From: an uncultured Pirellulales bacterium
GTDB taxonomy: Bacteria > Planctomycetota > Phycisphaerae > Sedimentisphaerales > Anaerobacaceae
Length of the DNA stretch: 34,527 nucleotides
Direction: 5' to 3'
Assembly (NCBI GenBank): GCA_964653945.1
Contig: CAZZHL010000001.1
Location: forward strand, 1 to 34,527
Shown piece by piece: positions 10,434 to 34,527 of this stretch. The notes under the pieces were generated by a model. It was not told the origin of the DNA. It did not search any database and saw only the letters and a list, made by a program, of their open reading frames with translations. Each line of letters opens with the position of its first letter. The stretch's first letter is position 1. Position numbers and translations under genes: made by a program.

Positions 10434-10514
10434 AAAGACGCGTATAATATATGCTTATAAAGAACCTTAATTAGTAGATTCAAACACAGGGTACGGATTA
10501 AGAGAGATTTTACG

Positions 10515-15645: not shown

Positions 15646-15864
15646 TTTGCTAATATACAATTAGAATCCGCAGAAACTGGAACAGGATTTGCTATTACGT
15701 ATACGTATTCGTAGCGTATTCGTATAGAGATATTTAATAATTACGAATTCGAATTCGAGCAATTTGAAAAATTGTTAACTCGATTTCGTTTCGATAAATT
15801 CGTCGCTCGTCTCTCGTGGCTCGAAGCAAAGTTCGATTTTAGCCCGTCAAAGTAGGTTTTTTTC

Positions 15865-15892
15865 TTGACTTTTCTAAAAAACATCCTATAAT
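15865..15892 (+). promoter_or_regulatory. sigma70-type promoter, paralogous to 14227
   Basis: TTGACT (15865-15870), 16 nt, TATAAT (15887-15892). Confidence 0.65.
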
Positions 15893-16007
15893 AGATACAA
15901 GATTTGCGGTAATTTTCGATGCTCGTTCATCGGAGGAGGAGCATTTCTTGATTTCACACGGCGGTGAATAGTTTCTAAAAGGCTTACTAAGCGAGGAGAA
16001 AGAGCTG

Positions 16008-18049: not shown

Positions 18050-18061
18050 ACTGGTATTTAG

Positions 18062-18142
18062 GCCAAAGCTCCGGCGGGTAAACCCGCGACGGTTTTGCTG
18101 CTCGGCCTCGGCGGAATGGCGCTTAGAAAAAGACGGCGTTAG
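18062..18142 (+). pseudogene. Orphan PEP-CTERM anchor fragment
   Basis: Open frame AKAPAGKPATVLLLGLGGMALRKRRR* lies 13 nt after the preceding stop. It has no start codon or upstream domain, and the PEP motif is degraded. Confidence 0.5.
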
Positions 18143-18482
18143 CTTTGAGCTTTGAGTTATAAGTTCTTAAACTGCAAGGGATTGTAAAAAAATCTGCTAT
18201 AAGTACCTTCCATATATAGACTTACAAAATATTTTCAATCAAATACGCAGGTAGTTGCGCGCAAAAACCGGAAAAAACGAAAATTTTTTTATTCCTTTTC
18301 CTGCAAGCACTTAAAAAAATCCCATTTGTAAAAAATCATCCAAATTTCAATCAAATGTGCAGGTTCATCCTAATTATAGAGGGGCGACGACAGCCCCGTA
18401 TTGCGTGAAGCGTATCGCGTAGAGTTGATGAGTGAGATTGCTTCGCTTGGCTCGCAATGACATGTAAAAGTGGAGATTGAGT

Positions 18483-20057
18483 ATGGGATTTGAACTTGAT
18501 ATTTTTAACTCGGCTGAGGCGGGCGGTTCGACGTTGCTCACCACGGGTGAACCCAATGCGGATTTTCTCGACTGGCTTGTTGATGAGCACTCGGCCGATA
18601 TACAGAAGCACTTTACGAAGCTGTGGGAATACTATGCAAATCCGACGTATGAGCTAAACGACATAAGCGGCTACGACAAAAGGGCGAGTGAGTCGGGCCG
18701 CTGTTATGTGCAGGCGCAGGAGTACGGGCTGCCTGCGAGGATAACGGGCCTGGTGCATTGCAGCGATGCCGGAGTCTTCGGCGGCCGGGCGGTCAAAGAT
18801 GTGCAGCGAAAAGAGGCGGTTGTTGAAAATGATATTGCCTGGCGAATAAATGCAGCGGTTGATTTTTTGTTCGGTAAACCAATTAGTTTTGTATCGAGGT
18901 CGCCGGATAGCCAAAAACGCACAGAGATTGAGGCCATATTAAAGGCGGTTTTTGCGGCTAACGGCGGAATCGGATTTTTCCAGGATATGGCGGTGCTCGG
19001 AGGTGTTTACGGTTTTGTCGACTGCCTAATCAGGCCTGGCACAGATATCTTAGAACGCACTTCGTCTTCCTTCTCTTCCTCCTCACCCTCTAAAAAAACT
19101 TCGTTCGAAGATGTGCTGCAATTGGCACGGACAATCGGCCTTGAGCTGATTGAAGCACCGAGAGCACTGCCTGTTCTGGATGAGAACGACTACAAAAAAA
19201 TAAGGTTCTACGTGCAGCACTTCTACCAGAAGAGAAATGCGATGACCAGGAAGAACTCTTTTCTTTCCAACCTGTTTACGCGGGGCAAGCAAAGCGGCGA
19301 TACCCGGCAGGTGGTAGCGGTAACGGAGATTACTTCGGACTCGGCCTGGCAGAGATATGAAGACAAACAGCTCGTTGCGGAGGGTGAATGGCCGTGGGGA
19401 TTTCTGCCGGTGGTGCATATCCAGAATATTGCTCAGCCATATTATTACGAGGGGCTGAGTGATGTGGAGCCGCTGATGCCGCTGCAGGATGAGCTTAATA
19501 CGAGACTCAGCGACAGGGCAAACAGGATTACATTCCAGTCATTCAAGATGTATCTGGGAAAAGGCATAGAGGGCTTTGAGGACAGGCCCATCTCGCCGGG
19601 GCGGATGTGGTACACGGATAACATGGAAGCGACCATCGAAGAATTCGGGGGAGATGCAGCAGCGCCGAGCGAGGCCCTGCATATCGCAGAAGTAAGAGAG
19701 GCGATGGATAAGGCAAGCGGAGTGACGCCTGTTATGGCCGGGATTCTCAAAGGCAAGCTTGGCAACCTGACGAGCGCGGTTGCTCTTCGACTAACGCTTA
19801 TGGGAATGCTTTCAAAGACCGAACGGAAAAAATTTGCATACAGCGAAGGGCTGAAAAAAATCTGCCGGCTTGTCCTGTCAATACTCGATAAGGCCGACAT
19901 TTACAGGACCTCTGAGTGCCAAAGAGAGGTAGATGTTATTTTCCCCAACCCGCTGCCGGAAAATATGATGGAAAAACTAAAAGAGGCCCAGCTCAAAAAA
20001 GAACTGGGCGTACCAGCTGAGCAGGTGCTCAGAGAATTAGGATATGAGAGTTTATAG
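18483..20057 (+). CDS. Phage portal protein (SPP1 Gp6-like type)
   Basis: ATG at 18483 with GGAG at 18472-18475; the ORF track starts at TTG 18477. About 524 aa. The block GLSDVEPLMPLQDELNTRLSDRANRITFQSFKMY is portal-like. A scaffold-like gene and a capsid gene follow. Confidence 0.8.
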   Translation: MGFELDIFNSAEAGGSTLLTTGEPNADFLDWLVDEHSADIQKHFTKLWEYYANPTYELNDISGYDKRASESGRCYVQAQEYGLPARITGLVHCSDAGVFGGRAVKDVQRKEAVVENDIAWRINAAVDFLFGKPISFVSRSPDSQKRTEIEAILKAVFAANGGIGFFQDMAVLGGVYGFVDCLIRPGTDILERTSSSFSSSSPSKKTSFEDVLQLARTIGLELIEAPRALPVLDENDYKKIRFYVQHFYQKRNAMTRKNSFLSNLFTRGKQSGDTRQVVAVTEITSDSAWQRYEDKQLVAEGEWPWGFLPVVHIQNIAQPYYYEGLSDVEPLMPLQDELNTRLSDRANRITFQSFKMYLGKGIEGFEDRPISPGRMWYTDNMEATIEEFGGDAAAPSEALHIAEVREAMDKASGVTPVMAGILKGKLGNLTSAVALRLTLMGMLSKTERKKFAYSEGLKKICRLVLSILDKADIYRTSECQREVDVIFPNPLPENMMEKLKEAQLKKELGVPAEQVLRELGYESL

Positions 20058-20063
20058 TTCATT

Positions 20064-20098
20064 GTTCATAGTTCGTTGTTCGTCGATGAACTATGAAC
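20064..20098 (+). terminator. Perfect 11-bp hairpin after the portal gene
   Basis: GTTCATAGTTC (20064-20074) pairs with GAACTATGAAC (20088-20098). No clear U-tract follows. Confidence 0.3.
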
Positions 20099-20126
20099 TC
20101 AAAACTATGAACATAAAGGGGTTTTA

Positions 20127-20660
20127 ATGAGTCAGATTGACACAGAAGAAAATGTTCTGTCAGAGACAGAAGAGTCGGCCGGTGACAGCGATAACTTAAA
20201 GCTTGTTCCGGTGGCTGAATCAATCCGCTATCGCAAGAGGGCACAGAGTGCCGAGAAAAAAGCCGAGGTTTTGTCTGAGCAATTGGCACAGACCAGGTCG
20301 CAGCTGACAAAGCTGTCTGAGCAACTCAGCGATGTTCAGACCGAACAGAAACTGATGCGCAGACTTGCTGCTGCCGGAGCGGCCGATATGGAAACGGCTG
20401 TGTTAATTGCCAAAGCAAGACTGAACGGCGAAACGGATACGGATTTGGAAAGTGTTGTTGAGCAGTTGAAAAAAGAAAAGCAATATCTGTTCCACACAGC
20501 CGGAGAAAGTTCAACGGTGAAGATTACTAAAACGGCAGGGGCAAGGCAGCGAGTGACAAGCGGCCAGGCGGTTCTCGAAAGAGCAGCCAAAAAAGCGGCG
20601 ACCACAGGCAATCGAACAGATTTGCAGGAGTATCTGAGACTGCGAAGAAATTTTTTATAG
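20127..20660 (+). CDS. Phage scaffolding-like coiled-coil protein
   Basis: 177-aa acidic, helical, Q/E/K/L-rich ORF between the portal and capsid genes. The call is mainly positional. Confidence 0.55.
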   Translation: MSQIDTEENVLSETEESAGDSDNLKLVPVAESIRYRKRAQSAEKKAEVLSEQLAQTRSQLTKLSEQLSDVQTEQKLMRRLAAAGAADMETAVLIAKARLNGETDTDLESVVEQLKKEKQYLFHTAGESSTVKITKTAGARQRVTSGQAVLERAAKKAATTGNRTDLQEYLRLRRNFL

Positions 20661-20759
20661 AAGAATAGCCACGAAGGCACGAGGTCACAAAGAAAGTAAA
20701 AGTTAGAAAAATTAGTGTCTTTGTGTCTTGGTGGCAAAAAACAAAAGGAGAATCATAAG

Positions 20760-21914
20760 ATGGCTTTTACGGGAAAAGCAACTTATTCAGCGGGAACGAC
20801 TCTGCCGGAGCTTGCAGAGGATGTATCAGATTTAATCGGGATAATTTCGCCTTATGAGACACCATTGCTGGATGCTTTGGGCGACCCGATGAGAGAGGCA
20901 ACGAGCACACATCATGAATGGCTTGAGGATGAGCTTTTGCCTAATAAGGATGCTATCAACGACAATACATGGAGCGACCCGGATTCCGATACAGAGTTTG
21001 ATGTTGACCACGGCAGCAGATTTCGCATAGGCGACCAGATTCAGGTCGAGGGCAGTGAAGAGCTGATGCTCGTAACCGGTATCAGTGGCGATACACTGAC
21101 AGTAGTTCGCGGATATGCGGGCACGACGCCGGAGGACCTTGCTGACAATCTGGTAATCAACATTCTCGGGAATGCGGCTCTTGAGGGGGCGGACAAGCCC
21201 AGCGCCAGATTTACCAATCGTAGCAGATGTGGTAACTACACGCAGATATTTACCGCTGCGGTGGAGGTCAGCGGAACGGATATGGCTGCGAGCCATTTAG
21301 GTTTGTCTGACGAGATGGATTATCAGAAGCAGGAGCGGCTACGTGAGTTGCTTCGCGACCTTGAGAATACGGTTATCAATGGCGGCCAGCCGGCGAGTAA
21401 TCCCGAAGGCAGCGGTTCAGTGCGAAGGTCGATGAAAGGAATATTGAAACACCTTTCAACGAACGTATTCCATACCGGTGACAGCGGTTTTCCAACGGGC
21501 ACCGACCTTAATGAGGCCAAGATTAATTATGTGCTCAGGAAGGTTTGGGAGGCAAGTTCCGGCAACGTGGACCTGATTGTAGTCGGTGGTTTTCAGAAGC
21601 GAAAGATAAACGCCTTTTGCGCTGAGAGCCGGAGCTACGGAGCCGGTGATACTACTTTCACCGATATGATTAGTATTTACGAGAGTGATTTCGGCGTTTG
21701 CAGGATTGTTACTACGCGATGGATGCCACCGCATGCGGCGCTGCTGCTGGATTCGTCCCGCGTCAAAGTGCTGCCATTAGCAGGGCGGAGCTTTCATTTC
21801 AAGCCGTTGGCGAGCAGTGGTGACTATGAGTGCGGCGAGCTGATTGGCGAATATACACTCGAGCTTAAAAATGAAGCGGCACACGGGCTTATTCGCGACC
21901 TGACTACCACTTAA
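20760..21914 (+). CDS. Phage major capsid protein (HK97-fold; resembles the DUF5309/SU10-type coat family)
   Basis: ATG at 20760 with AAGGAG at 20745-20750; the ORF track starts at GTG 20715. The N-terminus TLPELAEDVSDLIGIISPYETPLLDALG...HEWLEDEL matches my recollection of that coat family. Position after portal and scaffold supports the call. Confidence 0.75.
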   Translation: MAFTGKATYSAGTTLPELAEDVSDLIGIISPYETPLLDALGDPMREATSTHHEWLEDELLPNKDAINDNTWSDPDSDTEFDVDHGSRFRIGDQIQVEGSEELMLVTGISGDTLTVVRGYAGTTPEDLADNLVINILGNAALEGADKPSARFTNRSRCGNYTQIFTAAVEVSGTDMAASHLGLSDEMDYQKQERLRELLRDLENTVINGGQPASNPEGSGSVRRSMKGILKHLSTNVFHTGDSGFPTGTDLNEAKINYVLRKVWEASSGNVDLIVVGGFQKRKINAFCAESRSYGAGDTTFTDMISIYESDFGVCRIVTTRWMPPHAALLLDSSRVKVLPLAGRSFHFKPLASSGDYECGELIGEYTLELKNEAAHGLIRDLTTT

Positions 21915-22438: not shown

Positions 22439-23065
22439 CTAAAGAACAACTGAGACTGTATTGCTTGGCAAGCTTTCGCCGCCGGTGTTTATGGCCTTGA
22501 CACGATATTCAAGTTGAACACCACGTGGTTGGTTCATTAGCGTCTCTTTGCTTTCCAGTGCGATGCTGACCTGATGCCAGTTGCAGAACTCGCCGCTCCC
22601 TTCCGGTTGCTGGCGCCGTTCGATTACATAAGTTCTCACATTTCCTCCGGAACCGCGCGTTGGGGATTTCCAGTCCAGTAGAATCGTGCTGGCCCCTTGA
22701 ATAACCGCTTCGAGATTACGCGGCTGGCCCGGTGGGTTGGCAGGTGATGGCGAGGCCTTCGGGCCCCAGCCGATATATTCGAGCTTCTCGGAATCTGCGC
22801 CCACATCGACTTCTGACTTCTTTAGCTCGGCCTTCATCGCTTCTACGAGAACAGCTAATTTTGCATCCTTTTCATCAGTGGCGATCTGAGCTGCGGCCAG
22901 CGCTTCAGTCTGGATATTTTTGGCGGTTAGATACCGATGGCGCCTCATCGTAAGAACCGGTGGGCCGGTATGACTGGGAAAGTCGGCTGGGTGGGCTGCG
23001 TAACCGGCTATCATAGCGTTGGCCAGAGCCAGAATATCTGCTTCTCGTTTCGGGAATTTAGGCAT
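22439..23065 (-). CDS. Helical N-domain + Pro-rich linker + fibronectin type III domain protein
   Basis: 208 aa. PPGQPRNLEAVIQGASTILLDWKSP...VRTYVIERR...LEYRVKAINTGGESLPSN is an Fn3 signature. No signal peptide. Confidence 0.8.
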   Translation of the reverse strand: MPKFPKREADILALANAMIAGYAAHPADFPSHTGPPVLTMRRHRYLTAKNIQTEALAAAQIATDEKDAKLAVLVEAMKAELKKSEVDVGADSEKLEYIGWGPKASPSPANPPGQPRNLEAVIQGASTILLDWKSPTRGSGGNVRTYVIERRQQPEGSGEFCNWHQVSIALESKETLMNQPRGVQLEYRVKAINTGGESLPSNTVSVVL

Positions 23066-23152
23066 AAATTAGTTCTTAGTATTTAGCAGTTAGTCGTTAG
23101 TGTTTTCTGTCTTTGCTTTTCTAATTCAAATTCATCTTTATCTGACATTCTC

Positions 23153-23824
23153 TCAGGATTCAAATCCAAATATTGAATAGTCGACCCGCATATTATTCGT
23201 AAGATCCCAAACCTCATCTCTTTTCCGCTCTAAGTGTGGGTAATGCTCTCTTCTATTCAGGGACATATACAGTATCCCAATTAGATCGTCCTTATTGTTT
23301 TTCAGGTTGTCAGATATTACCTTTGCGATAAACTTTGTAATTTGAATTCCTGCAATGTAAGAAGGATTAGCCGCAGAAGCAAGAAGCACTAGTAGATTGC
23401 TTGCGAAGTCGTCGAATCCCTTATCGTTAACTACCGTCTCTACCCTCTCACCCAGTTTCCGCACGTCCTTGTCTGATTCGATAGCGATAAGTGACCAGTT
23501 AAAATCGTCGGGGATAGTTTTAGATTGATATAGCACGTACCCTGCATCACCGAAAGTCATGACTGAATTGTCCTTGACATTCTCAATTGTCGCGAAGATT
23601 CGCGAACTGGCAACTTGTTGCGTCGCCGCCTTAACGATTTCTCGTTTTCGTGCCTCATCGTTAGAAGATAGAAGCTCATCTATGTCAGGAAACGAGAAAT
23701 CACCCCTTGTGATGAAACTTAACAGCTTCACTTCTGCTTTATCAGGTCCGACTAAAATGAACTGCGGACTTTCCATGTTGTCTGTGATTTTCAGCTTGTT
23801 AATTCTAAAATAGAACATTTTCAT
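23153..23824 (-). CDS. Orphan hypothetical protein
   Basis: 223-aa ORF, visibly more AT-rich than both flanking Fn3 genes. No recognisable motif, no TM segment, no signal peptide. Start at 23824 or 23818. Confidence 0.65.
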   Translation of the reverse strand: MKMFYFRINKLKITDNMESPQFILVGPDKAEVKLLSFITRGDFSFPDIDELLSSNDEARKREIVKAATQQVASSRIFATIENVKDNSVMTFGDAGYVLYQSKTIPDDFNWSLIAIESDKDVRKLGERVETVVNDKGFDDFASNLLVLLASAANPSYIAGIQITKFIAKVISDNLKNNKDDLIGILYMSLNRREHYPHLERKRDEVWDLTNNMRVDYSIFGFES

Positions 23825-23942
23825 TTCCTTAATAGGCGTAAAGTTCGTTTACACTTAAATACTCAAACGCCACCGAAAGGCGCAAAGTATCCTTTATCTG
23901 TGCCTTCGGATACTCACTATTCACTAATCGCTATTCTCTATC

Positions 23943-24566
23943 TTACAGCACGACTGCGGCTGTGTTAGACGGGATACTTTCACCACCGACGTTGACGGCT
24001 TTTATGCGGTATTCAAGTTGTGGGCCTCGCGGCTGGTTTATCAACGTGGTTTCTGTTTCCAGTGCTATACTGACCTGCGCCCACGGGCCGAATTCACCAC
24101 CACCGGCTGGTTGCTCTCGCCTTTCGATAACGTAGGTTCGCACTGTCCCACCGGAACCACGGGCAGGTGCTTTCCAGTCTAAAAAGATCGTACCGGGCCC
24201 CTGGATAATAGGGTCGAGATTACGCGGCTGGCCGGGCGGGTCGGCAGGAGTAGGAGTCGCCTTCGGGCCCCAGCCGATATATTCGAGCTTCTCAGAGTCG
24301 ATTCCCACATCGACCTCGGATTTTTTCAGCTCATCTCTCATCCTCTCTTCGAGGTCATCGAGCTTCAGGTTTTTTTCCTCGGTAGCGACCTGAGCGGTGC
24401 CCATCGCATCTGTCTGTGTCGTCTTGGCTGTACTGTAGTCGGTAAGTACCGTAGTCAGCGAGGCCGCATCAGAGCTGGGAAAATCCGCTGCGTGTGCCGT
24501 ATAACCGGCGACCATTGCGCTGGCGAGCGCTGTTATATCTGCTTCTGCTTTTGGAAACTGAGGCAT
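23943..24566 (-). CDS. Fn3-domain protein, paralog of 22439..23065
   Basis: 207 aa, colinear over its whole length with the 208-aa paralog. Shared blocks include EKLEYIGWGPKA, PPGQPRNL, VRTYVIERR and LEYR(V/I)KA(I/V)N.GGES.PSN. Confidence 0.8.
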   Translation of the reverse strand: MPQFPKAEADITALASAMVAGYTAHAADFPSSDAASLTTVLTDYSTAKTTQTDAMGTAQVATEEKNLKLDDLEERMRDELKKSEVDVGIDSEKLEYIGWGPKATPTPADPPGQPRNLDPIIQGPGTIFLDWKAPARGSGGTVRTYVIERREQPAGGGEFGPWAQVSIALETETTLINQPRGPQLEYRIKAVNVGGESIPSNTAAVVL

Positions 24567-24666
24567 AATTCACACTTCCTTTCTGCTTTTCTAAATTCTC
24601 GTTTTTCTGTTAATCTCTATATAGACTCTCCGCCTTTTCGGATCTTCCGATACCGTTTTCTAACGA

Positions 24667-25130
24667 CAAAGTAAACTGACTTAGACCTTCCGCAGCGCGC
24701 CCAGGCGTAAAGTAAACCGACTTCGCCGTTTCGCTGCGTGCGCAGCCACAAAGTAAATTGACTTAGACGCAAAGTAAATTTACTTAGCCATGAAGTAAAT
24801 TGACTTAGTCGTTCCGCAGCGTGCGCAGTCGCAAAGTAAACTCACTTTTTCTCCGGCGGGGGCCAAAAAGGCCGTTTTAGCCGTAATTTCTAACAAATCG
24901 GCGAAATGTCACTTAGGGCTGACTGTTATTGCGATGAGGTGACGATGTTATGGCACTGATGGCGAAGTTTTATCCAACTACTACTTCGACGAAGCTCAAC
25001 ATATGTGCGTTATGCAGCGTACGCAGGCGCGAAGCAAGTTCACTTAGTTGCAAAGTGAATTGGCTTAGTCGTGGCTCAAATTGACTTCGCCGTTACCCAG
25101 TGTGTGCATCTGCAAAATAAACTTGCTTCG
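24667..25130 (+). repeat. Two clusters of phased 18-nt iteron-like direct repeats (consensus CAAAGTAAAYTGACTTAG)
   Basis: Copies start at 24667, 24708, 24749, 24770, 24791 and 24832 (spacings 41, 41, 21, 21, 41). A second cluster starts at 25030, 25051, 25072 and 25113 (spacings 21, 21, 41). Wherever the spacing is 41 nt, the gap holds a GC-rich near-palindrome of the CGCAGCGYGCGCAG type, degenerate in cluster B. Confidence 0.85.
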
Positions 25131-25640
25131 CCTCGGCGAGGCTATAAAAAGTCCCCCCCAAAGGGACAGGTATATAAGAGCTATGGATTGATTAAGTGTC
25201 CATAAGAAAACAGCGGTTTTTCTGCAGAGGTGACGATGTTATGGCACTATGAGCGAAAATTTTCTTTTTGAGTGGTTCTTTTATCCAACTACTGCGTTAC
25301 ACAGCCCCGCCCGATGCTCGACGTACTACAGTACGCCTCCGCTCGGTCGAAACTGCAAGCCTTGTATTTGGAGTAAAATCCCTCACTCAAAAGGGGGCAT
25401 ACTGTTTTCGGCGAGATGCGAGATGCGAACGACGCTTGTCCGCCATAGCATCGGCGAAGGCGGAAGTGACGAATATGCCACAGATTGCACAGATTACGCA
25501 GAGAATTGGTTAATCCCAACAAAAAGATTCGGGACAAGTTAGTGATTTGGTGAGGTGGGAACTTATTCAAGAGGCTTGCCAGCAGATTCAAATCCTTTTG
25601 AGCCGTTCGACCGGGGGACCGACACAAATCGAGTCGGACT

Positions 25641-26730
25641 GTTATAGTTGACAGTTCAAGCAATCCCAAATACAATAATCTCTACGTCACGATGACAATA
25701 GATAGAGTTGTAGTTGACAGTTCAAGCAATCCCAAATACAATCATAGTATATTCTGGCTTGTGGTTCAATCTGTTGTAGTTGACAGTTCAAGCAATCCCA
25801 AATACAATAAACCGATAGTGTTTCACCTTCAAGATGGTGTTATAGTTGACAGTTCAAGCAATCCCAAATACAATATCTGATATGTCGATAATCGTAGAGA
25901 CGTTGTTATAGTTGACAGTTCAAGCAATCCCAAATACAATCTTTCACCGCATCAGGACGATAACCGCAGTGTTATAGTTGACAGTTCAAGCAATCCCAAA
26001 TACAATAGAACAATTGACCAGCGTGCAGACGGCAATGTTATAGTTGACAGTTCAAGCAATCCCAAATACAATACCAAGCTGTGCGTTGTGTAACGCCGAT
26101 AGGTTATAGTTGACAGTTCAAGCAATCCCAAATACAATGCTGCCTTGCGACCCCTTGTAGAATCCGGAGGTTATAGTTGACAGTTCAAGCAATCCCAAAT
26201 ACAATTGCCTTCCGCCGATGCCTCAGAGTGCCTTTGTTATAGTTGACAGTTCAAGCAATCCCAAATACAATTACCTCCTCCAATGCCATTAAGCTCGTTT
26301 CGTTATAGTTGACAGTTCAAGCAATCCCAAATACAATTCTGATATATCTATAATCGTAGAGACGTTGTTATAGTTGACAGTTCAAGCAATCCCAAATACA
26401 ATTGGGGCCTTTGCATCCACGATAACCGATAAGTTATAGTTGACAGTTCAAGCAATCCCAAATACAATGCCTACACCTAAAGTTACGGCTAAAGAATGTT
26501 ATAGTTGACAGTTCAAGCAATCCCAAATACAATCATACCATGTTATAGGTATGTCGGTGCCGGGTTATAGTTGACAGTTCAAGCAATCCCAAATACAATA
26601 CTGCGCCGCTGGTGGGCTGGGCCTGGTGCGTTATAGTTGACAGTTCAAGCAATCCCAAATACAATATAGTATATATCGAATTGTGTAAGTGTGTGTTATA
26701 GTTGACAGTTCAAGCAATCCCAAATACAAT
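25641..26730 (+). CRISPR. CRISPR array, type II-C-like: 17 repeats of 36 nt, 16 spacers of 29-31 nt
   Basis: The repeat is GTTATAGTTGACAGTTCAAGCAATCCCAAATACAAT. Repeats start at 25641, 25707, 25773, 25839, 25905, 25971, 26037, 26103, 26170, 26236, 26302, 26367, 26433, 26498, 26564, 26630 and 26695. Repeats 2 and 3 carry A4G. The + orientation is supported by the GTT... 5' end, tracrRNA complementarity and the intra-repeat promoter. Confidence 0.98.
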
Positions 26731-26915
26731 ACCAATGCGCTAACATTGCCTATAATAATGACTTAGCGGCATTTGTCTGAGAAAAAACCACTATTAATGA
26801 CCCTTATGGGGAGCATTCTATTTTATTTTTTCAGCGGCACTTCCAATTAAAAACTAATGTAAGAGGGGTTTTTTGCCGTAAAAAATTGAAAATACCATCT
26901 TTTGAGGAATAATTG

Positions 26916-27839
26916 ATGGATACATATAATTGCGGTAGAATCATCGAAATTTCCGGCTTAAATCATTTTCTTAAAAAAGAAAGAGGGGCTCTGGCGGTTT
27001 ATCGTAAGGGCCAAAAAGTAGGCTCAGTCGCCTTTGATGATATACAAGCAATCTTACTAAATGCCTACGATTTGTGCTACTCTCACAATCTTCTAAGTGA
27101 GTTTGCGGAAAGAAAAATTCCTGTCGTCTTCTGCAATAAAAAGCATATCCCCACAAGCATGATTTTGCCGTTCGACAGCTATTTCCACCAAAGCAGAAGA
27201 ACCTTACATCAGGCACAAGCTAAAAAACCGGTAAACAAACAGCTCTGGAAAATAATAATTGCCGCAAAACTGACTCAACAGGCTTATATACTCGAATTGC
27301 TGGGGAAAAAACACAAATATCTTTTGGAACTTATAAAAGAAATAAAATCTGATGATTCAACGAATTGTGAAGGTCAGGCAGCAAGACATTATTTTACTCA
27401 ATTGTTTGGAAAAGATTTCGTAAGGGACAGGGAGCAACCGGGCCCTAATTCATTGTTAAATTATGGATATATCGTTTTTCGAAGCGCGATGGCAAGAGCA
27501 ATTGTCTCTTACGGTCTGAATCCAAGCATAGGTATAAAGCATTGTAACCCTAATAATTCTATGCCTTTAGTTGACGATCTGTTGGAACCATTCAGGCCAT
27601 TTATAGATATGGAAGTATATACAATGTACATTGGGGAAGGGCAATTTGAAGTGGATCCTGAAAATAAAACCCGGCTCATTAGCCTTTTAAATCAATCAAT
27701 AAGAACCGATAAAATTACAACCACCCCTAACCATGTGATGCACAAAACTGCTGCTTCTCTGGGCCATATTTATGATGGCACGATTAAAAAACTCTACCTC
27801 CCATTTATGTGTTTCGCAAATATTTATCGAAATAATTAA
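26916..27839 (+). CDS. cas1: CRISPR-associated endonuclease Cas1 (type II)
   Basis: ATG at 26916 with GAGGAA at 26903-26908; the ORF track starts at TTG 26913. NSLLNYGYIVFRSAMARAIVSYGLNPSIGIKHCN...PLVDDLLEPFRPFID is the Cas1 core. It lies on the strand opposite cas2 and cas9. Confidence 0.93.
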   Translation: MDTYNCGRIIEISGLNHFLKKERGALAVYRKGQKVGSVAFDDIQAILLNAYDLCYSHNLLSEFAERKIPVVFCNKKHIPTSMILPFDSYFHQSRRTLHQAQAKKPVNKQLWKIIIAAKLTQQAYILELLGKKHKYLLELIKEIKSDDSTNCEGQAARHYFTQLFGKDFVRDREQPGPNSLLNYGYIVFRSAMARAIVSYGLNPSIGIKHCNPNNSMPLVDDLLEPFRPFIDMEVYTMYIGEGQFEVDPENKTRLISLLNQSIRTDKITTTPNHVMHKTAASLGHIYDGTIKKLYLPFMCFANIYRNN

Positions 27840-28198
27840 AACAGGGTAAGCTGTTCCTGCTGTCGCCTTATAATCTCCTCATTAGTAGCAGGTAAATTAC
27901 CAATATAATTTTCCACAGTGGCAAATTGACGATCTGTAATATAAAGGAAGGAGACCAGACCGCCGTCAGGGACTCTCGCAGATAGTTTTCTGACGAGTAT
28001 CCTTGCTGTCCTGAGTGAACCTGTGGGTTTTATATATACGGAAAACTGTTTCATTACAAAACCGTTGTCCAAAAGCAGATTGCGAAACTTCGTTGCCCTT
28101 CGCATCTGCATTTTTGTCTTGACCGGCAAATCGAACATACAGAAAACCCACATAAAGCACCAGTCACTTAGACTATTTAATCGCTTCTTTCTTGCCAT
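27836..28198 (-). CDS. cas2: CRISPR-associated endoribonuclease Cas2
   Basis: 120 aa. MWVFCMFDLPVKTKMQMRRATKFRNLLLDNGFVMKQFSVYIK is a type II Cas2 pattern. The start overlaps the cas9 3' end by 26 nt. Its stop overlaps the cas1 stop (27836-27839). Confidence 0.88.
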   Translation of the reverse strand: MARKKRLNSLSDWCFMWVFCMFDLPVKTKMQMRRATKFRNLLLDNGFVMKQFSVYIKPTGSLRTARILVRKLSARVPDGGLVSFLYITDRQFATVENYIGNLPATNEEIIRRQQEQLTLF

Positions 28199-31100
28199 TC
28201 CAGAGTTTTTTGTGTTTTCTTTTTATTTTACCGAATGATGTCAGTTCTATTTTGCGTGCTTTGTGTTCTGTATAAAATCCTAACCTACGAATAATAGAAT
28301 CACGTAATGTAAAAGGCCCATTTTTACCTGTTGTACCTCGTGCATCTGAATGATAGGCAATACCTAATTTGGTATGACAGGCATTGACGACGGCAAAACA
28401 TCTTTTTCCATCGGTATATTTTTCCCATTCATCGGGGGTATTAAGCTCTATCATATCACCTTTATGCAAAGACCAAATAGGCTTAAAACCTTTTTGTTGC
28501 CATTGTGGTATAAAGTCTTTATTGTTCGCATCAAATAGACTTATACATTCCCAGCCCACTTTAAATTTGTCATTTTCGTACAAATCAATGCGATAATTCC
28601 CGTCTTTTCCAGTTTCGTATGCTATATTATGCTTATCTATAAAAATCACATTTTCTAAATTATTGTAGACAGGATAAGTGACAAACTCATACTTACCGTA
28701 CTTCATAACCATCCCAAAAGCCTTTTGCAATATCATTGCCTCGCTAATTTGTCTTTCTTTTTTACTATCTTTGGTAAGCTGCTGATTTTCTTCCTTAAGC
28801 GCTTCCTCTGCTTGTTCATAATATGATTCTATTGCTGTCTTTAATTTGATCATATTTTCAGCATCTTTGGCAATATCAGTGTGCCAGTCCGGTTTAATAG
28901 TATTGGTATTTATCAGTAGATTATTGAGACTGGATTTATCCTTCAAGACCGTTGTTTTCGTAATTGGCCTGTTATACCTGGTAATTACTTTGTTGGGATA
29001 ATCCGGATTTTGCATTAAAGCATATTCGCCTGTTTCTTTATGCAATCGGCCGTTCCTGCTATGCTCAGGCTTATGATAGACTCTAACTTTATTTAGAGAA
29101 TCAATTACCTTCTTCCTAAAGACAACTAGATTCTTCTTGCGGTCGTTATCGTTTCCATTGCTTAACGGTACAGTTAGCTGCAAAAACGGTGTTCCAAAGA
29201 CCCTTTTATCAAACCAGTTGATTTTCTGCATATCTGCTCTGCTTACAAAGCCAATAGTTATCGCGTCAACAATGTGATGCCGGTGATCTATTCTCGGTTT
29301 ATTTTTCCAATCTTTATTTTTAATTTTTTCCCGTCTTTCCCAGTTGCCGTCAATGTTGAGTTCTTCCTGATACAAAACTTCTCCGGTGTCGATGTTTACA
29401 TAATGCGTCTTATCCGGCAGATATTCAGGAACTTCTTTATTCAGGCCCATCAAATCATATTCAATCCCGTCAAGATTCCAGATTCTTCTTAGTTTTGCGG
29501 TATGTCCGCCGTTGATAGTTAATATCCTCGTATTGTTGGGGTCTCCTTGTTTGTAATCGACAATAGCTTTTAAATATCTGGCGGCTAATTTGCAGATGTA
29601 TCTTGTGTCAGTTAAATATCGCGTAATATTGTCGGCATCACCGCTTTCAAATTTTTCCTTTGCATCGCTTTCGAACCGCCATTTTTTCCCATCCAACATA
29701 TTTTTATTGCTTCTGATTTCCTTCAGGATCCCATAGATTTTATCACCATGCTTATTTTGCAGATACTCATAAGGATACATATTGCCTTTACTAAGATTAT
29801 CGCTTCTTTTAATAAGAACTCGATTTATTCGGGCATCTGTGCCGCCGACGCTGTCCGGTATTAAATGCTCGATTTCGAAACCTTCGAATCTAGGATGTAT
29901 TCTTTCTAATGTACTGGAAAAGATATCTTTCCAATTTTGTTCCTCCGCCAAACGCCATTTAAATATATTTGATTCGGTAGCTCTTAATCTAACATCAGGG
30001 CTTCTGAGGTATTTGACAGCTTCTTCTGTCTTCTTTCTGTTTTTTTCCTGTTGTTTTTCATATTCGTTTATTTTTTCGGCACTCATTCCGACTTCTCTGG
30101 CAAGTTCGATGTTAATATCGTAAGGTTTTCCGTATATTCGAATAATATCATTAATTACCTTGCGAAGCTGGTTAAGTATCCTGTGAACAGCAGGATTGGC
30201 AATTTTTCCGTATTCTGCTTCAAGCGGATTTAAAGATTTATTTATCTTTTTCTGCCATTTTGCTATAGGCTGAGTATCTGTTTTTAAAATTTCACCATAG
30301 TATGGGAGCATATCATATTTGCCCTGTATTTCTCTTGCTCGTTCTTCTTCTGCGATAAATCTTTTATCGGTTTGGGCAAGTATATCTGTTGCTTCTCTTA
30401 TTGAAATGACATCTTTTTCAAGTAACTTTAAAATTTCTTTTGTGGCTGTTATACCTAACGAGCCCCTGCCTTTGGGCAGCATTGCCAATAATTGAGATAT
30501 CTGCTGCTCGTCTTCACTATTAAATTTTTTCTTTAATATTTCAATGGCCTTATCATCGTTATAAAGATAACCTTCTTTATCAGGGTTCTTGGGTTCAGCC
30601 ATAAACTCAACAACTTTAGCGAGTTTTTTATCCTCAAGATTATTTAGAAAATCAATTGATTTGTATTCCGCTGTCGAGTATAGGTAAGGCTGTATCATAT
30701 CAGCTAAAACAACTTTAATAGACCTCTCAAGATTCAATAATTTACTGATTGACTTTTTGCCGGCCTTTTTGCCTTCAAGCAGCAGTTCATTGATAATCAA
30801 ATCACGTTGAGCCTTTTTCAGCTTTTTTTGTTCTGTTTGCGTTTGAAGCCGTATGTTATTGACTGACTCATATATTCTGCGTTTTTCGCTCAATGGATGA
30901 GCTTTGGATAGCCGTTTCTCACCAGTAATAAAAATACAGTCACCTGTTGCATAAGGTCTATGGTCATATTCATAAAAAAGAATGTTATAAATTTTCTTTT
31001 TTAGACTTGTGTTTAGCTGCTTGTAATATTGGGCTTGTGTATCCCATAAAAGGTTAAATTCATCTTTTACTAAATATCTTGGGATTGCATAATCAACCAT

Positions 31101-31724
31101 TACCTTGCCGCCAATGGTTCTGGTCCTCTGCCGCACATACCGCCTGTTTTCCGCAGTGATTTTATTTTTTTTATAGAGCCTATTCAGCCTCATATAAAAA
31201 TATTCACCTATTGTTTTGGCGTTGTTTTCATCTATGTATTTTTTTAACTTGGCATATTCTGATAGCTCTTTTTTCTTTTTTTTACTATCATTCTCTTCGT
31301 TTATTTCATTATCTTTTTCTAACTCTATTTCTGTTTTTTGCATTTCCACGAAACTTGCCCCACGATGTTTAGCCATATGCAGTATGGCTCGTCCAAGTTC
31401 CATAATATTATTTAATTTTCCATTTACTCCCTGTGCTCGTATTCTGTATGGTGAAAGACTGATAAGCTCTGTCTGAATATCATCATCAAGACTCCATAGA
31501 CCAGCTTCTGCAAGGGCTTTAGAAAGCAGAGAAATTCTTTGTTTGGTCCTTTCAGTATTTTTTCTTTGATTTCGTTTCAGTCTTCTTTCTTCAGCCCCTT
31601 TTGATACATCAAAGATACATACCCCTGCATCTAATATATCTGTTATTCTATTTTGCTCATCTAAAGATAAAACGGCTGCACCGATTGAACCTGTCCCTAA
31701 ATCCAAGGATAATCGATATTTCAT
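28173..31724 (-). CDS. cas9: Cas9 (type II-C-like, 1183 aa)
   Basis: RuvC-I YRLSLDLGTGSIGAAV. Arg-rich bridge helix RRLKRNQRKNTERTKQR. RuvC-II PYDINIELAREV. HNH FEIEHLIPDSVGGTDARINRVLIKRSDNLSKGN. RuvC-III DHRHHIVDAITIGF. No csn2 or cas4 is nearby. Confidence 0.95.
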   Translation of the reverse strand: MKYRLSLDLGTGSIGAAVLSLDEQNRITDILDAGVCIFDVSKGAEERRLKRNQRKNTERTKQRISLLSKALAEAGLWSLDDDIQTELISLSPYRIRAQGVNGKLNNIMELGRAILHMAKHRGASFVEMQKTEIELEKDNEINEENDSKKKKKELSEYAKLKKYIDENNAKTIGEYFYMRLNRLYKKNKITAENRRYVRQRTRTIGGKVMVDYAIPRYLVKDEFNLLWDTQAQYYKQLNTSLKKKIYNILFYEYDHRPYATGDCIFITGEKRLSKAHPLSEKRRIYESVNNIRLQTQTEQKKLKKAQRDLIINELLLEGKKAGKKSISKLLNLERSIKVVLADMIQPYLYSTAEYKSIDFLNNLEDKKLAKVVEFMAEPKNPDKEGYLYNDDKAIEILKKKFNSEDEQQISQLLAMLPKGRGSLGITATKEILKLLEKDVISIREATDILAQTDKRFIAEEERAREIQGKYDMLPYYGEILKTDTQPIAKWQKKINKSLNPLEAEYGKIANPAVHRILNQLRKVINDIIRIYGKPYDINIELAREVGMSAEKINEYEKQQEKNRKKTEEAVKYLRSPDVRLRATESNIFKWRLAEEQNWKDIFSSTLERIHPRFEGFEIEHLIPDSVGGTDARINRVLIKRSDNLSKGNMYPYEYLQNKHGDKIYGILKEIRSNKNMLDGKKWRFESDAKEKFESGDADNITRYLTDTRYICKLAARYLKAIVDYKQGDPNNTRILTINGGHTAKLRRIWNLDGIEYDLMGLNKEVPEYLPDKTHYVNIDTGEVLYQEELNIDGNWERREKIKNKDWKNKPRIDHRHHIVDAITIGFVSRADMQKINWFDKRVFGTPFLQLTVPLSNGNDNDRKKNLVVFRKKVIDSLNKVRVYHKPEHSRNGRLHKETGEYALMQNPDYPNKVITRYNRPITKTTVLKDKSSLNNLLINTNTIKPDWHTDIAKDAENMIKLKTAIESYYEQAEEALKEENQQLTKDSKKERQISEAMILQKAFGMVMKYGKYEFVTYPVYNNLENVIFIDKHNIAYETGKDGNYRIDLYENDKFKVGWECISLFDANNKDFIPQWQQKGFKPIWSLHKGDMIELNTPDEWEKYTDGKRCFAVVNACHTKLGIAYHSDARGTTGKNGPFTLRDSIIRRLGFYTEHKARKIELTSFGKIKRKHKKLWNGKKEAIK

Positions 31725-31756
31725 GATTTAATTCCCTGCAATTAAAATTATTTTAT

Positions 31757-31785
31757 TTGACAAATCTCAAAACCGAGGTTATATC
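31757..31785 (+). promoter_or_regulatory. Candidate tracrRNA promoter, divergent from cas9
   Basis: TTGACA (31757-31762), 17 nt, TATATC (31780-31785). Confidence 0.5.
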
Positions 31786-31791
31786 ACTTAT

Positions 31792-31884
31792 AGATATATG
31801 TGTATTTGGGATTGCTTGAACTGCACATATAATAAAGGCTATATGCCCTAAGATGTGAGAGGGACTTGATTGCCCTCTCTTTTT
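31792..31884 (+). ncRNA. tracrRNA
   Basis: 31801-31823 (TGTATTTGGGATTGCTTGAACTG) is the exact reverse complement of repeat positions 12-34. 31824-31833 pairs imperfectly with repeat positions 1-10. An AAGGCTATATGCC nexus-like hairpin follows. The terminator is GAGAGGG (31857-31863) / CCCTCTC (31873-31879) + TTTTT. The 5' end is approximate. Confidence 0.8.
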
Positions 31885-32270: not shown

Positions 32271-32422
32271 GTGCTGTTCACGCACAATGCTGTGGTTCTC
32301 TCGTACAAGTTAGCTTCAGAAAAGAGCATCGCTTAGCTTTCATGTCCCAAAAGGCTCTGACGGGCCTGAGGTGAGCGTGATTGCGGCGGTGCTCTTTTTA
32401 TTTACCCGCCGCGGAAAGAGAT

Positions 32423-32635
32423 ATGGCAATGAAACTAACACGCAAAAAAGGCCTGATTCGGCTGGCTCGCCTCGCTGCGAAGCTGGTAATCTTTCTGTCG
32501 GTGCTCTTACTGGGGTGGGCGTTCTGCGTCAGGAATCCCGAGGACAAAGATTTTGTCTGTAAGATGCTCTTGTTTTTCGCAGTTGCGAGTTGCGTAATTT
32601 GCTGGCTCATTGGCAAACTTTTCAATGTTGACTGA
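32423..32635 (+). CDS. Possible small two-TM membrane protein (70 aa)
   Basis: ATG at 32423 with GGAAAGAG at 32412-32419. MAMKLTRKKGLIRLARLAAKLVIFLSVLLLGWAF...MLLFFAVASCVICWLIGKLF has a basic N-terminus and two hydrophobic helices. H2 follows 35 nt downstream. No homology recognised. Confidence 0.35.
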   Translation: MAMKLTRKKGLIRLARLAAKLVIFLSVLLLGWAFCVRNPEDKDFVCKMLLFFAVASCVICWLIGKLFNVD

Positions 32636-32670
32636 AAGCATAACGGGCTTGTGACGGAATACTCGCTGGT

Positions 32671-32776
32671 GCTGCACGGCCTGACGGCTCGGGCGCCCTT
32701 GAGAGCTGGTGGTTGCAAATGGAGTTAATCCGCCGCAGGCGGATAAATCCACTCGAGGCCGTGCAGCGATTTTTTA
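32671..32776 (+). ncRNA. Structured element H2: 11-bp closing stem around 75 nt, then a U-tract
   Basis: GCTGCACGGCC (32671-32681) pairs with GGCCGTGCAGC (32757-32767), followed by GATTTTTT. An internal hairpin is TCCGCC-GCAG-GGCGGA. Confidence 0.45.
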
Positions 32777-32872
32777 GACTCATTATGCCTTATGGCAGAG
32801 GTTGATTGAAACTATGCAAAAATTTGTGACCCCATGAGATAGCGACAGCTTATCTAACGGGGTCTTAGGCAA

Positions 32873-32952
32873 GGCTGCACGGCCAGGTTGTTCCGTCACC
32901 CCCAGGAACCGGCCCGACCGCTGCGGGCTTAAAGCCGTGCAGCTATTTTTAT
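32873..32952 (+). ncRNA. Structured element H3: same closing stem as H2 around 50 nt, then a U-tract
   Basis: GCTGCACGGC (32874-32883) pairs with GCCGTGCAGC (32934-32943), followed by TATTTTTA. Internal hairpins are GTTCC..GGAAC and GCCCG..CGGGC. Confidence 0.45.
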
Positions 32953-33112
32953 ATTTGCAGGAAATTAAGCTGTCGAAATCCTCTCTCTCCGCCATTAAAT
33001 TTACCCTTATTTCGCCGCTAAATAGCCGAATCTCCTGCCAAAGTCACCCCCCAAAAGTGTCGATAAAAGGCATGCATTATCTAGCCGATTGGCATTTTTC
33101 AGGCCAAAAAGA

Positions 33113-33161
33113 AAAGGGCTGGAGGGAGGAGATTGTGAAAGAGAGAAACTCCAGCCCCTTT
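33113..33161 (-). terminator. Hairpin with a strong minus-strand U-tract; same family as 9999-10051
   Basis: GGGCTGGAG (33116-33124) and CTCCAGCCC (33149-33157) form a perfect 9-bp stem with a purine-rich 24-nt loop. On the minus strand it is followed by TTTTCTTTTTGG. Confidence 0.45.
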
Positions 33162-33341
33162 CAGGTTTTACTGAGTTATCGTGTTTTTAGTGTGTAGCCA
33201 AAGCAAATAACCCAGCTATATTGATATCGGCATATCCCCTAAATTTTGTTTATCGCTAAAATTGCAGGATTTACCCCTGCCGGACTCGCCAAAATCTTTC
33301 TGGAAAATATAAGTTTTTTATTGAATTTGGCCGATATTTAT

Positions 33342-33395
33342 GTTAACCTGTATTGAGTTAGTTAACATAGGTTAACCAATTAGAGAGAAGTTAAC
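33342..33395. promoter_or_regulatory. Four GTTAAC palindromes (candidate operators) upstream of the HTH-doc operon
   Basis: GTTAAC occurs at 33342, 33361, 33371 and 33390 (spacings 19, 10, 19). They overlap a TATAAT at 33398-33403. Confidence 0.55.
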
Positions 33396-33418
33396 ATATA
33401 TAATTCTTTTTAAGGCAG

Positions 33419-33688
33419 ATGGTTAAGAAGGAATATATCACAGTACCGCAGTTGGCTGAATTGCTGGGCATAAGCCGTATCGCCGCATACAAAAAGGTCA
33501 AAAGCGGCCAAATACCAGCTAAGAAAATCGGCAGAAATTACGCCATTTCCAAAAACGATATAGCACGCAGTCTGACCGGCAAAATGACCGGCAAGAGTAA
33601 AAAGCAGATTGACTCAGCAGTCAAAAAAACAGTTCAGGAATACGGCAGGGTATTGAAATGGCTTGGTAAGGAATCTCGTGCTACGTAG
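33419..33688 (+). CDS. Excisionase/MerR-type HTH DNA-binding protein, probable antitoxin for Doc
   Basis: 89 aa. ITVPQLAELLGISRIAAYKKVKSGQIPAKKIGRNYAISKNDI is an HTH_17-type motif. It lies 18 nt upstream of the Doc gene. Confidence 0.7.
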   Translation: MVKKEYITVPQLAELLGISRIAAYKKVKSGQIPAKKIGRNYAISKNDIARSLTGKMTGKSKKQIDSAVKKTVQEYGRVLKWLGKESRAT

Positions 33689-33706
33689 CACTTCGCGGAG
33701 TAGCAA

Positions 33707-34141
33707 GTGAACATCATCACCATAGAAGAAGTTGAATATATCGCTTTCAGTCTTGCGCAGGAGCACATGTTTTTTAATGAGCCGATCCCCGATTTCACGA
33801 CACGATATCCGCACATACTTGAAAGCTGCTTGGCTGTACCTTTTCAACGTTTTTCCAGAAAGGCCCTATATCCGTCGATGATATCCAAGGCAAGCATCCT
33901 TTTGTACCTGATGATTAAGAACCATCCTTTTCAAAATGGCAATAAAAGGATAGCTATAACAATGTTATTTGTATTCCTGCACAAGAACAACAAGTGGCTG
34001 GTTTTGGACCCCAAGGAGCTTTACAATTTCACTGTGTGGATTGCGCAGAGTCCGTCCAAACTTAAGGATTCTGTAGTTGCCGGTATAGAGCAGTTTATTC
34101 GGACGTATTTAGTGGACTTAAACAAAAAGCGTCGCAGGTAG
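33707..34141 (+). CDS. doc: Fic/Doc family toxin (death-on-curing type)
   Basis: 144 aa with a GTG start. HPFQNGNKRIA is the Doc variant of the Fic motif HxFx(D/N)GNKR. Confidence 0.85.
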   Translation: MNIITIEEVEYIAFSLAQEHMFFNEPIPDFTTRYPHILESCLAVPFQRFSRKALYPSMISKASILLYLMIKNHPFQNGNKRIAITMLFVFLHKNNKWLVLDPKELYNFTVWIAQSPSKLKDSVVAGIEQFIRTYLVDLNKKRRR

Positions 34142-34162
34142 ATTCCTGATGATTTATGTAGT

Positions 34163-34527
34163 TTATGCCAGCGCGCGGTTGATGTTGCTGATTGCCTCGT
34201 CGATTTCCTCGGAGCTCTTAAAGCCGATTACCACCGAGTCGAGCAAACTGCACTGCATCGCAAAGCGGATTGACTTTTCTCGCTCTTCTGGGCTGGCAAA
34301 GTCGCCCTCTCCCATAATTTTCATTCCGATGATACCGTGATTGTTTTTGCGCATAATTTTAATCTGCTTCATCACCTCGGGGACATCGGAGGCCTCGCTC
34401 CAGGCATTCCATCCCTCCGATGGTGTATCAATTTTCACGCCCTGCGGATTTATTCGCACCAGGTTCACGTCTACCCAGTCCATTTTGGCGGCGAGAGATA
34501 AGGCCGGCAAACTATGACAGGAGACGC
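34163..34527 (-). CDS. Partial gene (C-terminal part), aldo/keto-reductase-like or TIM-barrel oxidoreductase-like
   Basis: The frame stays open to the window edge (..VSCHSLPALSLAAKMDW..), so the TTG at 34510 is probably internal. The end, DSVVIGFKSSEEIDEAISNINRAL, resembles AKR C-termini. The family call is weak. Confidence 0.5.
   Translation of the reverse strand, partial: VSCHSLPALSLAAKMDWVDVNLVRINPQGVKIDTPSEGWNAWSEASDVPEVMKQIKIMRKNNHGIIGMKIMGEGDFASPEEREKSIRFAMQCSLLDSVVIGFKSSEEIDEAISNINRALA

Follow-up and report, generated by a model that had tools for sequence, protein, structure and literature searches.

A predicted type II-C CRISPR-Cas9 locus of an uncultured planctomycete, with cas2 joined to cas9 and cas1 detached and converging

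The DNA analysed here is a stretch of 34,527 nucleotides (nt), called the window throughout, from an uncultured planctomycete (contig CAZZHL010000001.1, assembly GCA_964653945.1). Between positions 25641 and 31884 it carries a CRISPR locus together with the genes cas1, cas2 and cas9. The CRISPR array (25641-26730, plus strand) is made up of 17 repeats, each 36 nt long, alternating with 16 spacers of 29-31 nt. A leader on the spacer-integration side (26731-26915, plus strand) separates the last repeat from cas1 (26916-27839, plus strand), which encodes 307 amino acids (aa) from its ATG and has an alternative TTG start at 26913. The minus strand is occupied by cas2 (27836-28198, 120 aa) and cas9 (28173-31724, 1183 aa), and a predicted trans-activating CRISPR RNA (tracrRNA) gene at about 31792-31884 on the plus strand is divergent from cas9. 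The cas9 and cas2 genes overlap by 26 nt at 28173-28198, while cas1 and cas2 meet tail to tail, their stop codons sharing the palindrome TTAA at 27836-27839. An earlier note on this DNA had given the same two overlaps, had placed the cas1 ATG about 185 nt past the last repeat, and had described cas1 as inverted relative to cas9-cas2, downstream of the array and co-directional with CRISPR RNA (crRNA) transcription; the coordinates and the strands of the open reading frames (ORFs) confirm all of this. Judged from the sequence, the locus is by gene content a complete type II-C CRISPR-Cas9 system, as that note had held, and its unusual gene order is real.

The components expected of a type II system are all present, namely a Cas9 with split RuvC and HNH domains, a tracrRNA anti-repeat, and Cas1 and Cas2 beside the array. 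Cas9 scored 443 bits against TIGR01865 (cut-off 100) and matched the Pfam families RuvC_III, HNH_4 and Cas9_a. Its RuvC I-III and HNH motifs are intact and the catalytic positions D8, E540, H620, N643, H817 and D820 are conserved, in keeping with the previous description of an intact Cas9. The Glu-His pair before the catalytic His, which had been pointed out in place of Asp-His, is indeed present (E619-H620) and invariant within the Cas9 clade described below, but it is not special, since it also occurs in the canonical II-C Cas9 of L088 and L089 (numbers with the prefix L refer to the loci compared). The closest solved Cas9 structures match the RuvC/HNH core only, at about 120-150 bits; the chains of 1082-1083 residues among them are, from their length, presumably Neisseria meningitidis Cas9. 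Cas2 matches PF09827 and TIGR01573 (50.7 bits). It bears a basic N-terminal extension of 13 aa (MARKKRLNSLSDW), which is clade-specific and encoded within the cas9 overlap. Almost all Cas2 proteins of the clade are 120 aa long, whereas canonical Cas2 lacks the extension and measures 101-109 aa in most canonical loci. Cas1 belongs to the type II Cas1 family TIGR03639 (cas1_NMENI; 249 bits, cut-off 120), and an alignment of 32 sequences shows its catalytic residues E152, H209 and D220/D221 to be invariant. A GAGGA Shine-Dalgarno sequence precedes the ATG at 26916. Neither Csn2 nor Cas4, which had been reported absent, was matched by Pfam among the seven ORFs of 70-144 aa scanned on the flanks (25249-25675 and 32398-34510; ORFs below about 70 aa lay outside the scan), and within this scope there is no fourth cas gene, as is characteristic of subtype II-C. 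It is the gene order that departs from the subtype. II-C was originally defined by a cas9-cas1-cas2 operon (PMC3737331), and here cas9-cas2 lies on the minus strand with cas1 converging on it from the plus strand. The locus is II-C by content and probable mechanism and falls outside the operon definition, and it is a variant of locus architecture, neither a new kind of system nor a new defence mechanism.

The tracrRNA was located by a complementarity scan, which placed the anti-repeat at 31799-31834 with 23 contiguous complementary nt, followed by an internal loop and a lower stem. Downstream, GGC-TATAT-GCC (31837-31847) gives a nexus hairpin and GAGAGGG...CCCTCTC (31857-31879) a terminator hairpin, and TTTTT follows at 31880-31884. 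A candidate promoter for the tracrRNA, whose 5' end is a predicted one, can be read on the plus strand at 31757-31785, with TTGACA (31757-31762), a 17-nt spacer and TATATC (31780-31785). The predicted tracrRNA is conserved in six related loci with compensatory changes in five pairs, and its anti-repeat co-varies with the repeat (GGG/CCC versus GAG/CTC; six loci). No Rfam family reached threshold in a scan of the whole window, so that the predicted tracrRNA is one without an Rfam model.

The repeat of the window, GTTATAGTTGACAGTTCAAGCAATCCCAAATACAAT (17 copies), has variants starting GTTGTAG at repeats 2 and 3, which is the array end away from the cas genes. All 17 repeats contain TTGACA-17-TACAAT on the plus strand, each agreeing at 11 of 12 positions with a sigma-70-type consensus, in a phylum whose promoters are poorly characterised. 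The -10 element had earlier been assigned to repeat positions 25-30; this was wrong, as TACAAT sits at positions 31-36, and the perfect -35 element TTGACA at positions 8-13 had been overlooked. Across the clade the pattern TTGAnn-17-TAnnnT is kept in 37 of 43 distinct repeats, although the last 4 nt vary. Both repeat-internal promoters and arrays that run against the cas operon have been documented in the II-C systems of N. meningitidis and Campylobacter jejuni (PMC5965381; PMC3737331). The promoter motif, present in every repeat of the window and conserved in the clade, would fit crRNA biogenesis of the same style, independent of RNase III. Because the repeat-internal promoters and the tracrRNA are both on the plus strand, crRNAs are predicted to be read from that strand, so that array and tracrRNA both run opposite to cas9-cas2. 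If N. meningitidis and C. jejuni are a guide, crRNA starts would fall inside the spacers and the crRNAs would then pair with tracrRNA. For the sigma-70-type promoter in the last repeat (26702-26730, plus strand), the start would be expected about 7 nt downstream.

The same two species suggest that new spacers would enter at the cas1-proximal end of the array. In a pair of related loci with a different gene layout (layout B, below), L026 possesses additional spacers at the cas2-proximal end when compared with L008, and the distal spacers are common to both. Among loci with the layout of the window, the conserved flank of the array is the cas1-proximal one only (AYCAMTGCGC), the distal flanks being unrelated, and a repeat-adjacent leader motif, ACCAATGCGC, is conserved. 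Degenerate repeats are found at the transcription-start end in N. meningitidis and C. jejuni (PMC3737331), in agreement with the polarity of the window. Given the spacer gains, the distal variant repeats and the conserved proximal flank, the interval of 185 nt between array and cas1 is regarded as the integration leader, though it lies 3' of crRNA transcription; this polarity is drawn from the one B-type pair and the asymmetry of repeat variants and flanks. Spacers 4 (25875-25904) and 11 (26338-26366) of the window agree at 27 of 29 positions; these near-duplicates reflect either two acquisitions of variant protospacers at one site or an internal duplication followed by mutation.

The gene order was then compared with that of relatives. 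The window Cas9 is an NCBI protein from a metagenome-assembled genome (MAG). Its relatives at 58-74% identity come from MAGs of Planctomycetota and Sedimentisphaerales, and the layout of the window recurs in at least nine other independent assemblies from different projects (L001-L004, L010, L072, L074, L090 and L091). The arrangement, named layout A, was found in all of these relatives with enough flanking sequence, down to the 26-nt cas9/cas2 overlap, the converging cas1 and the 4-nt overlap of stop codons, and the array begins 90-184 nt away from the start of cas1. Since the window consists of one MAG contig, the inverted cas1 might have come from faulty assembly or from a recent inversion confined to this genome, and misassembly had been raised in the earlier note as something for synteny in related genomes to settle. 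The recurrence of identical order and overlaps in at least nine other assemblies, at Cas9 identities of 58-74% and with synonymous sites saturated, makes either explanation hardly credible. Moreover, the order cas9-cas2-cas1(inverted) cannot arise by inverting cas1 in place, which would leave cas9-cas1(inverted)-cas2, and the idea of a simple in-place inversion is not borne out. An inversion through flanking inverted repeats or a recombinase was also rejected, with no specific scan made for them, in view of the 4-nt cas2/cas1 overlap and the ancient layout. Rather than a peculiarity of the window genome, the position of cas1 is fixed in a planctomycete subclade. It is probable that the locus represents a functional type II-C system of an uncultured Sedimentisphaerales-like member of Planctomycetota, with a layout that is lineage-specific yet evolutionarily fixed.

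To place this subclade, one genome per species was scanned for relatives of the window Cas9 and every locus was typed. The resulting clade comprises about 80 loci including the window, with Cas9 proteins 39-74% identical and all from MAGs; the hosts are Planctomycetota, many gut Alphaproteobacteria, Gastranaerophilales, Rickettsiales, Holosporaceae, Micavibrio, Parvibaculaceae and one spirochaete. In every clade locus with sufficient sequence, cas2 stands directly after cas9, usually with an overlap of 23 or 26 nt, and cas1 is never between the two. The position of cas1 is that of the window in 8 loci (layout A); in 40 it lies beyond the array on the crRNA strand (layout B), and in 9 it lies upstream of cas9, separated from it by the antisense tracrRNA gene (layout C). 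Another 23 loci, mostly at contig ends, were left untyped. Five of these (L039, L048, L059, L068 and L070) show no cas1 in 3-6 kb of sequence past the array. Four of the five (L039, L048, L068 and L070), on long contigs, consist of cas9-cas2 and an array with cas1 missing over 6 kb; there, cas1 may lie elsewhere in the genome or may have been lost. The canonical order cas9-cas1-cas2-array is seen in outgroup loci whose Cas9 is 23-30% identical (Campylobacter, Helicobacter, Paracoccaceae and others). Read from these gene maps, the rule of the clade is a cas2 coupled to cas9 and a detached cas1, and the window holds the Planctomycetota version of it.

The earlier note had named, as a finding that would overturn its reading, that this order is common in an already described II-C clade. 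This holds in part, the order being common within a clade, but no paper describing either the clade or the order was found; literature searches on the cas9-cas2 order, on detached or inverted cas1 and on II-C loci of Planctomycetes yielded nothing relevant. Automatic annotations appear to be the only form in which the Cas9 clade is known, and gut Alphaproteobacteria loci such as L007, L008, L012 and L013 carry no label beyond 'type II CRISPR RNA-guided endonuclease Cas9'. A Cas9 search of a plasmid collection returned relatives at no more than 28% identity, including those on Azospirillum and Nitrobacter plasmids, and the cultured alphaproteobacterial Cas9 known from the literature therefore lie outside the clade.

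Comparison with known systems sets the window apart in several respects. Like the II-C locus of N. meningitidis that encodes Nme1Cas9, it has the minimal set of cas9, cas1 and cas2, a predicted promoter inside each repeat and an array predicted to be transcribed opposite to cas9. The likeness extends to the sequences, as in both systems the 36-nt repeat starts with GTT(G/A)TAG and ends with ACAAT, and the tracrRNA forms an AAGGC...GCC nexus after the anti-repeat. Unlike N. meningitidis, where the order is cas9-cas1-cas2, the window has cas9-cas2 and then the converging cas1; its repeats contain a full -35 element (TTGACA) besides the -10, its Cas2 has the 13-aa N-terminal extension overlapping cas9, and its Cas9 is only distantly related. 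The loci of C. jejuni and Helicobacter (L082, L084 and L085) likewise share the II-C gene set and, as predicted for the window, the repeat-internal promoters and an array running against the cas genes. They differ in the canonical cas9-cas1-cas2-array order and in a Cas9 only 23-26% identical to that of the window, and the Cas2 extension is found on the window side. The gut Alphaproteobacteria loci (L007, L008, L012 and L013) belong to the same Cas9 clade at 47-50% identity and have homologous repeats (GTTATAGTTGAC...); the cas9/cas2 overlap, the Cas2 extension, the divergent tracrRNA position and the position of the leader hairpin are common to both. Their cas1, however, lies beyond the array (B) or upstream of cas9 (C) instead of between cas2 and the leader, their Cas1 is of a different lineage (35% identity), and their leader hairpin is strong and sequence-conserved.

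The history of cas1 differs from that of its neighbours. Mean identity between layout A and layouts B and C amounts to 49% for Cas9 and 53% for Cas2 but only 35% for Cas1; between layout A and canonical loci the values are 26%, 35% and 34%, respectively. In neighbour-joining trees, Cas9 and Cas2 join A, B and C, whereas the A-type Cas1 groups instead with the canonical loci L081, L088 and L089. A search of 5.8 billion proteins revealed that Cas1 identity drops from 52-84% among A-type relatives directly to 44% or less. The nearest Cas1 proteins outside the A lineage, P0159 and P0160 (40-41%), sit in canonical cas9-cas1-cas2 loci with a smaller Cas9; these two are the ones among the relatives at 44% or less for which genomic context was inspected. 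The A-type Cas1 is thus no closer to the other Cas1 of its own clade (35%) than to canonical II-C Cas1 (34-41%). As no specific relationship links the A-lineage Cas1 with the Cas1 of layouts B and C, cas1 acts like an exchangeable module, and on these comparisons we consider it somewhat probable that it has been replaced at least once. A caveat to this view is that the incongruence comes from pairwise identities and a neighbour-joining tree, and accelerated divergence remains an alternative to replacement. Within B and C, by comparison, the Cas1 tree broadly tracks the Cas9 tree while the position of the gene alternates between the two layouts, so that cas1 must have changed its place repeatedly. 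The incongruence of Cas1 with Cas9 and Cas2 might also be read as a sign that this cas1 derives from another CRISPR type, or from a casposon-like element, and lies beside the locus by chance. This is exceedingly improbable, given that TIGR03639 was the best model and other Cas1 subtype models scored far under their cut-offs, that the nearest outside relatives belong to canonical II-C loci, and that there are no further cas genes in the window.

It may further be asked whether the locus is decaying, with a displaced, unused cas1 and a frozen array. Some loci of the clade have no cas1 in the searched flanks (L039, L048, L068 and L070), and no spacer targets were found: the spacers of the window matched nothing elsewhere in it with as many as six mismatches allowed, the 15 distinct spacers (the near-duplicate spacer 11 being omitted) gave none among cultured-phage genomes, and the consensus of spacers 4 and 11 had no exact match in IMG/VR, for which one pattern was tried. 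The lack of protospacers in these three sources also tells against the functional reading favoured above, in which interference activity is a prediction. Against decay, the catalytic residues of Cas1 are intact and cas1 has a ratio of nonsynonymous to synonymous substitution rates (dN/dS) of 0.075 relative to L074, with dS saturated relative to most other relatives; by this estimate the gene is under strong purifying selection. The A-type arrays, with 12-32 repeats, were found to share no spacers with one another, which implies turnover, and L008 and L026 differ by gained spacers. Decay of the locus is accordingly judged very unlikely, and a functional system remains the preferred interpretation.

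The expression of cas1 in layout A was considered from the sequence that follows the array. Throughout the clade a hairpin, a T-run and an A-run occur within about 10 nt after the last repeat. In the window, a weak leader hairpin at 26734-26773 (-10.3 kcal/mol, z = -1.7) is followed by TTTGTCT (UUUGUCU in the transcript), and together they form a candidate attenuated terminator at 26734-26778 on the plus strand. The earlier statement that no convincing terminator exists here holds in so far as the hairpin is weak; it overlooked that the hairpin and TTTGTCT are present as a decayed homologue of a strong structure. The region 26695-26930 folded as a whole was no stabler than shuffled sequence (z = +0.2). 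Most hairpins of A loci range between -2 and -17 kcal/mol. Those of L001 (-16.7 kcal/mol) and L003 (-10.5 kcal/mol) are canonical with UCUUUUU, that of L074 is weak (-2.6 kcal/mol), and that of the closest relative, L091, is effectively lost (-2.1 kcal/mol), while L090, on the deepest A branch, has a very strong one (-27.5 kcal/mol). In B and C loci the median is -20.6 kcal/mol, the stem is often a perfect one of 13-16 base pairs (GCCTTGAAAT...ATTTCAAGGC), and U-runs come directly after it in many cases. This hairpin looks like an intrinsic terminator, which would shield cas2-cas9 from antisense transcription. It is sequence-conserved across many species (for example L012 7288-7364 and L013 9836-9912), and the distance between cas2 and array is fixed at 72-74 nt. 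Such constraint exceeds the need of a plain terminator, and the hairpin may also aid leader recognition during spacer integration.

No sigma-70-like promoter conserved across A loci was found between the hairpin and cas1. In the window, every site returned by the promoter scan near cas1 had its -10 element next to or across the start codon, which would strip the Shine-Dalgarno sequence from the transcript. The distance from hairpin to ATG is about 35-45 nt in L072 and L090 (about 45 nt in L072), leaving little room there for a separate cas1 promoter. In our reading, most cas1 transcripts would come from the repeat promoters, chiefly that of the last repeat, and would pass the decayed leader terminator hairpin, which would act as an attenuator. 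Whether cas1 is mainly expressed by such read-through, the central idea of the earlier note, is in our estimate an evenly balanced question. Several points weigh against it. Promoter use, termination and cas1 expression are all deduced from sequence, and the promoters of Planctomycetota are poorly characterised. L001 and L003 have a canonical hairpin with its T-run, and that of L090 is very strong, so that transcription would terminate before cas1 in some A loci at the least. The difference in hairpin strength between A and B/C (Mann-Whitney p = 0.0006) compares B and C with a single lineage whose loci are phylogenetically non-independent.

Alternatively, cas1 may have a weak promoter of its own within 26780-26905, with the hairpin and T-run ending the transcripts of the array and terminal repeat, and the dosage of cas1 would then be uncoupled from crRNA transcription. 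A hairpin and T-run at this place in nearly every clade locus, canonical and terminator-like in B and C as well as in L001 and L003, would suit this explanation. The window and L074 also share a block of about 45 nt (CTAATGTA.AGGG.TTTTT..GCCGTAAAAAATT) upstream of the Shine-Dalgarno sequence, which could be regulatory, and in L090 a motif TTTAGA-16-TAAAAT can be read by eye over the T/A-run. The missing conserved motif, the loss of the Shine-Dalgarno sequence from any transcript of the scanned sites and the short interval in L072 speak against it, as does the window hairpin, which is marginal and has gone in L091. A dedicated cas1 promoter is a serious possibility, although we would not put it at even chances.

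In the window, no intrinsic terminator was found between the converging cas1 and cas2 genes, and the transcripts of cas1 and cas9-cas2 probably overlap as antisense RNAs. Taken together with read-through from the array, the arrangement might be conceived as an adaptation module that is split by design, with Cas2 made in step with Cas9 and with cas1 separately regulated and exchangeable, driven by the repeat promoters through the hairpin and converging on cas9-cas2. Translational coupling would hold Cas2, with its basic N-terminal extension, in fixed proportion to Cas9, and Cas2 may bind Cas9. In the Planctomycetota layout, the repeat promoters of the array would drive cas1 past the attenuating leader hairpin, and cas1 would meet cas9-cas2 head-on with no terminator in between. 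This composite is speculative, and we regard it as unlikely in its entirety. If it were true, the supply of Cas1, and with it adaptation, would rise with crRNA transcription, and antisense transcription or transcriptional interference would create a reciprocal link between adaptation and the expression of cas9-cas2.

The arrangement matters beyond the window. II-C is defined, and usually drawn, as cas9-cas1-cas2, and this large clade, with environmental Planctomycetota and abundant gut Alphaproteobacteria among its members, departs from that order in a stereotyped way; automated typing or extraction of loci built on the order cas9-cas1-cas2 could misread them. The clade also offers a natural instance of separately expressed Cas1 and Cas2, which bears on the control of adaptation and on the part that Cas9 plays in it. 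Finally, its uncharacterised Cas9 proteins of about 1150-1190 aa come with defined tracrRNA/repeat pairs and could be tried as editors.

Some features of the surrounding DNA were also recorded. On the tracrRNA side, HTH_17 and Fic/DOC genes adjoin the locus (33419-34141). Related CRISPR loci are flanked by HTH_17, Fic, integrase or resolvase genes (L003 4950-5501, L007 13426-13501 and L008 10721-11806), and mobile elements may carry the Cas9 module along. Immediately upstream of the array, 24662-25262 holds clusters of a motif of about 21 nt (AAAGTAAAyTGACTTAG) with periods of 21 and 41 nt. The clusters lie inside a duplicated unit of about 290 base pairs, which also repeats GAGGTGACGATGTTATGGCAC (24925 and 25216), and they look like an iteron or operator array. 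Farther upstream, 5765-21914 contains phage-like structural genes interspersed with ordinary cellular ones. The former encode a large terminase (5765-7300), an SPP1-type portal (18477-20057), a scaffold protein (20127-20660) and an SU10-type major capsid protein (20715-21914); the latter encode an aspartyl-tRNA synthetase (10515-12338), a histidine kinase (12434-14089), a PEP-CTERM FGE-sulfatase protein and two PEP-CTERM proteins. Such a mixture is odd for a prophage and may represent a broken-up or domesticated set of capsid genes. Within the PEP-CTERM gene at 16008-17135, two tandem arrays of a 54-nt repeat (2.7 and 4.7 copies, about 70% identical) occupy 16263-16689. Three consecutive minus-strand ORFs of 207-223 aa follow at 22439-24566, and they look like paralogues because the first and the third share a C-terminal fibronectin type III domain.

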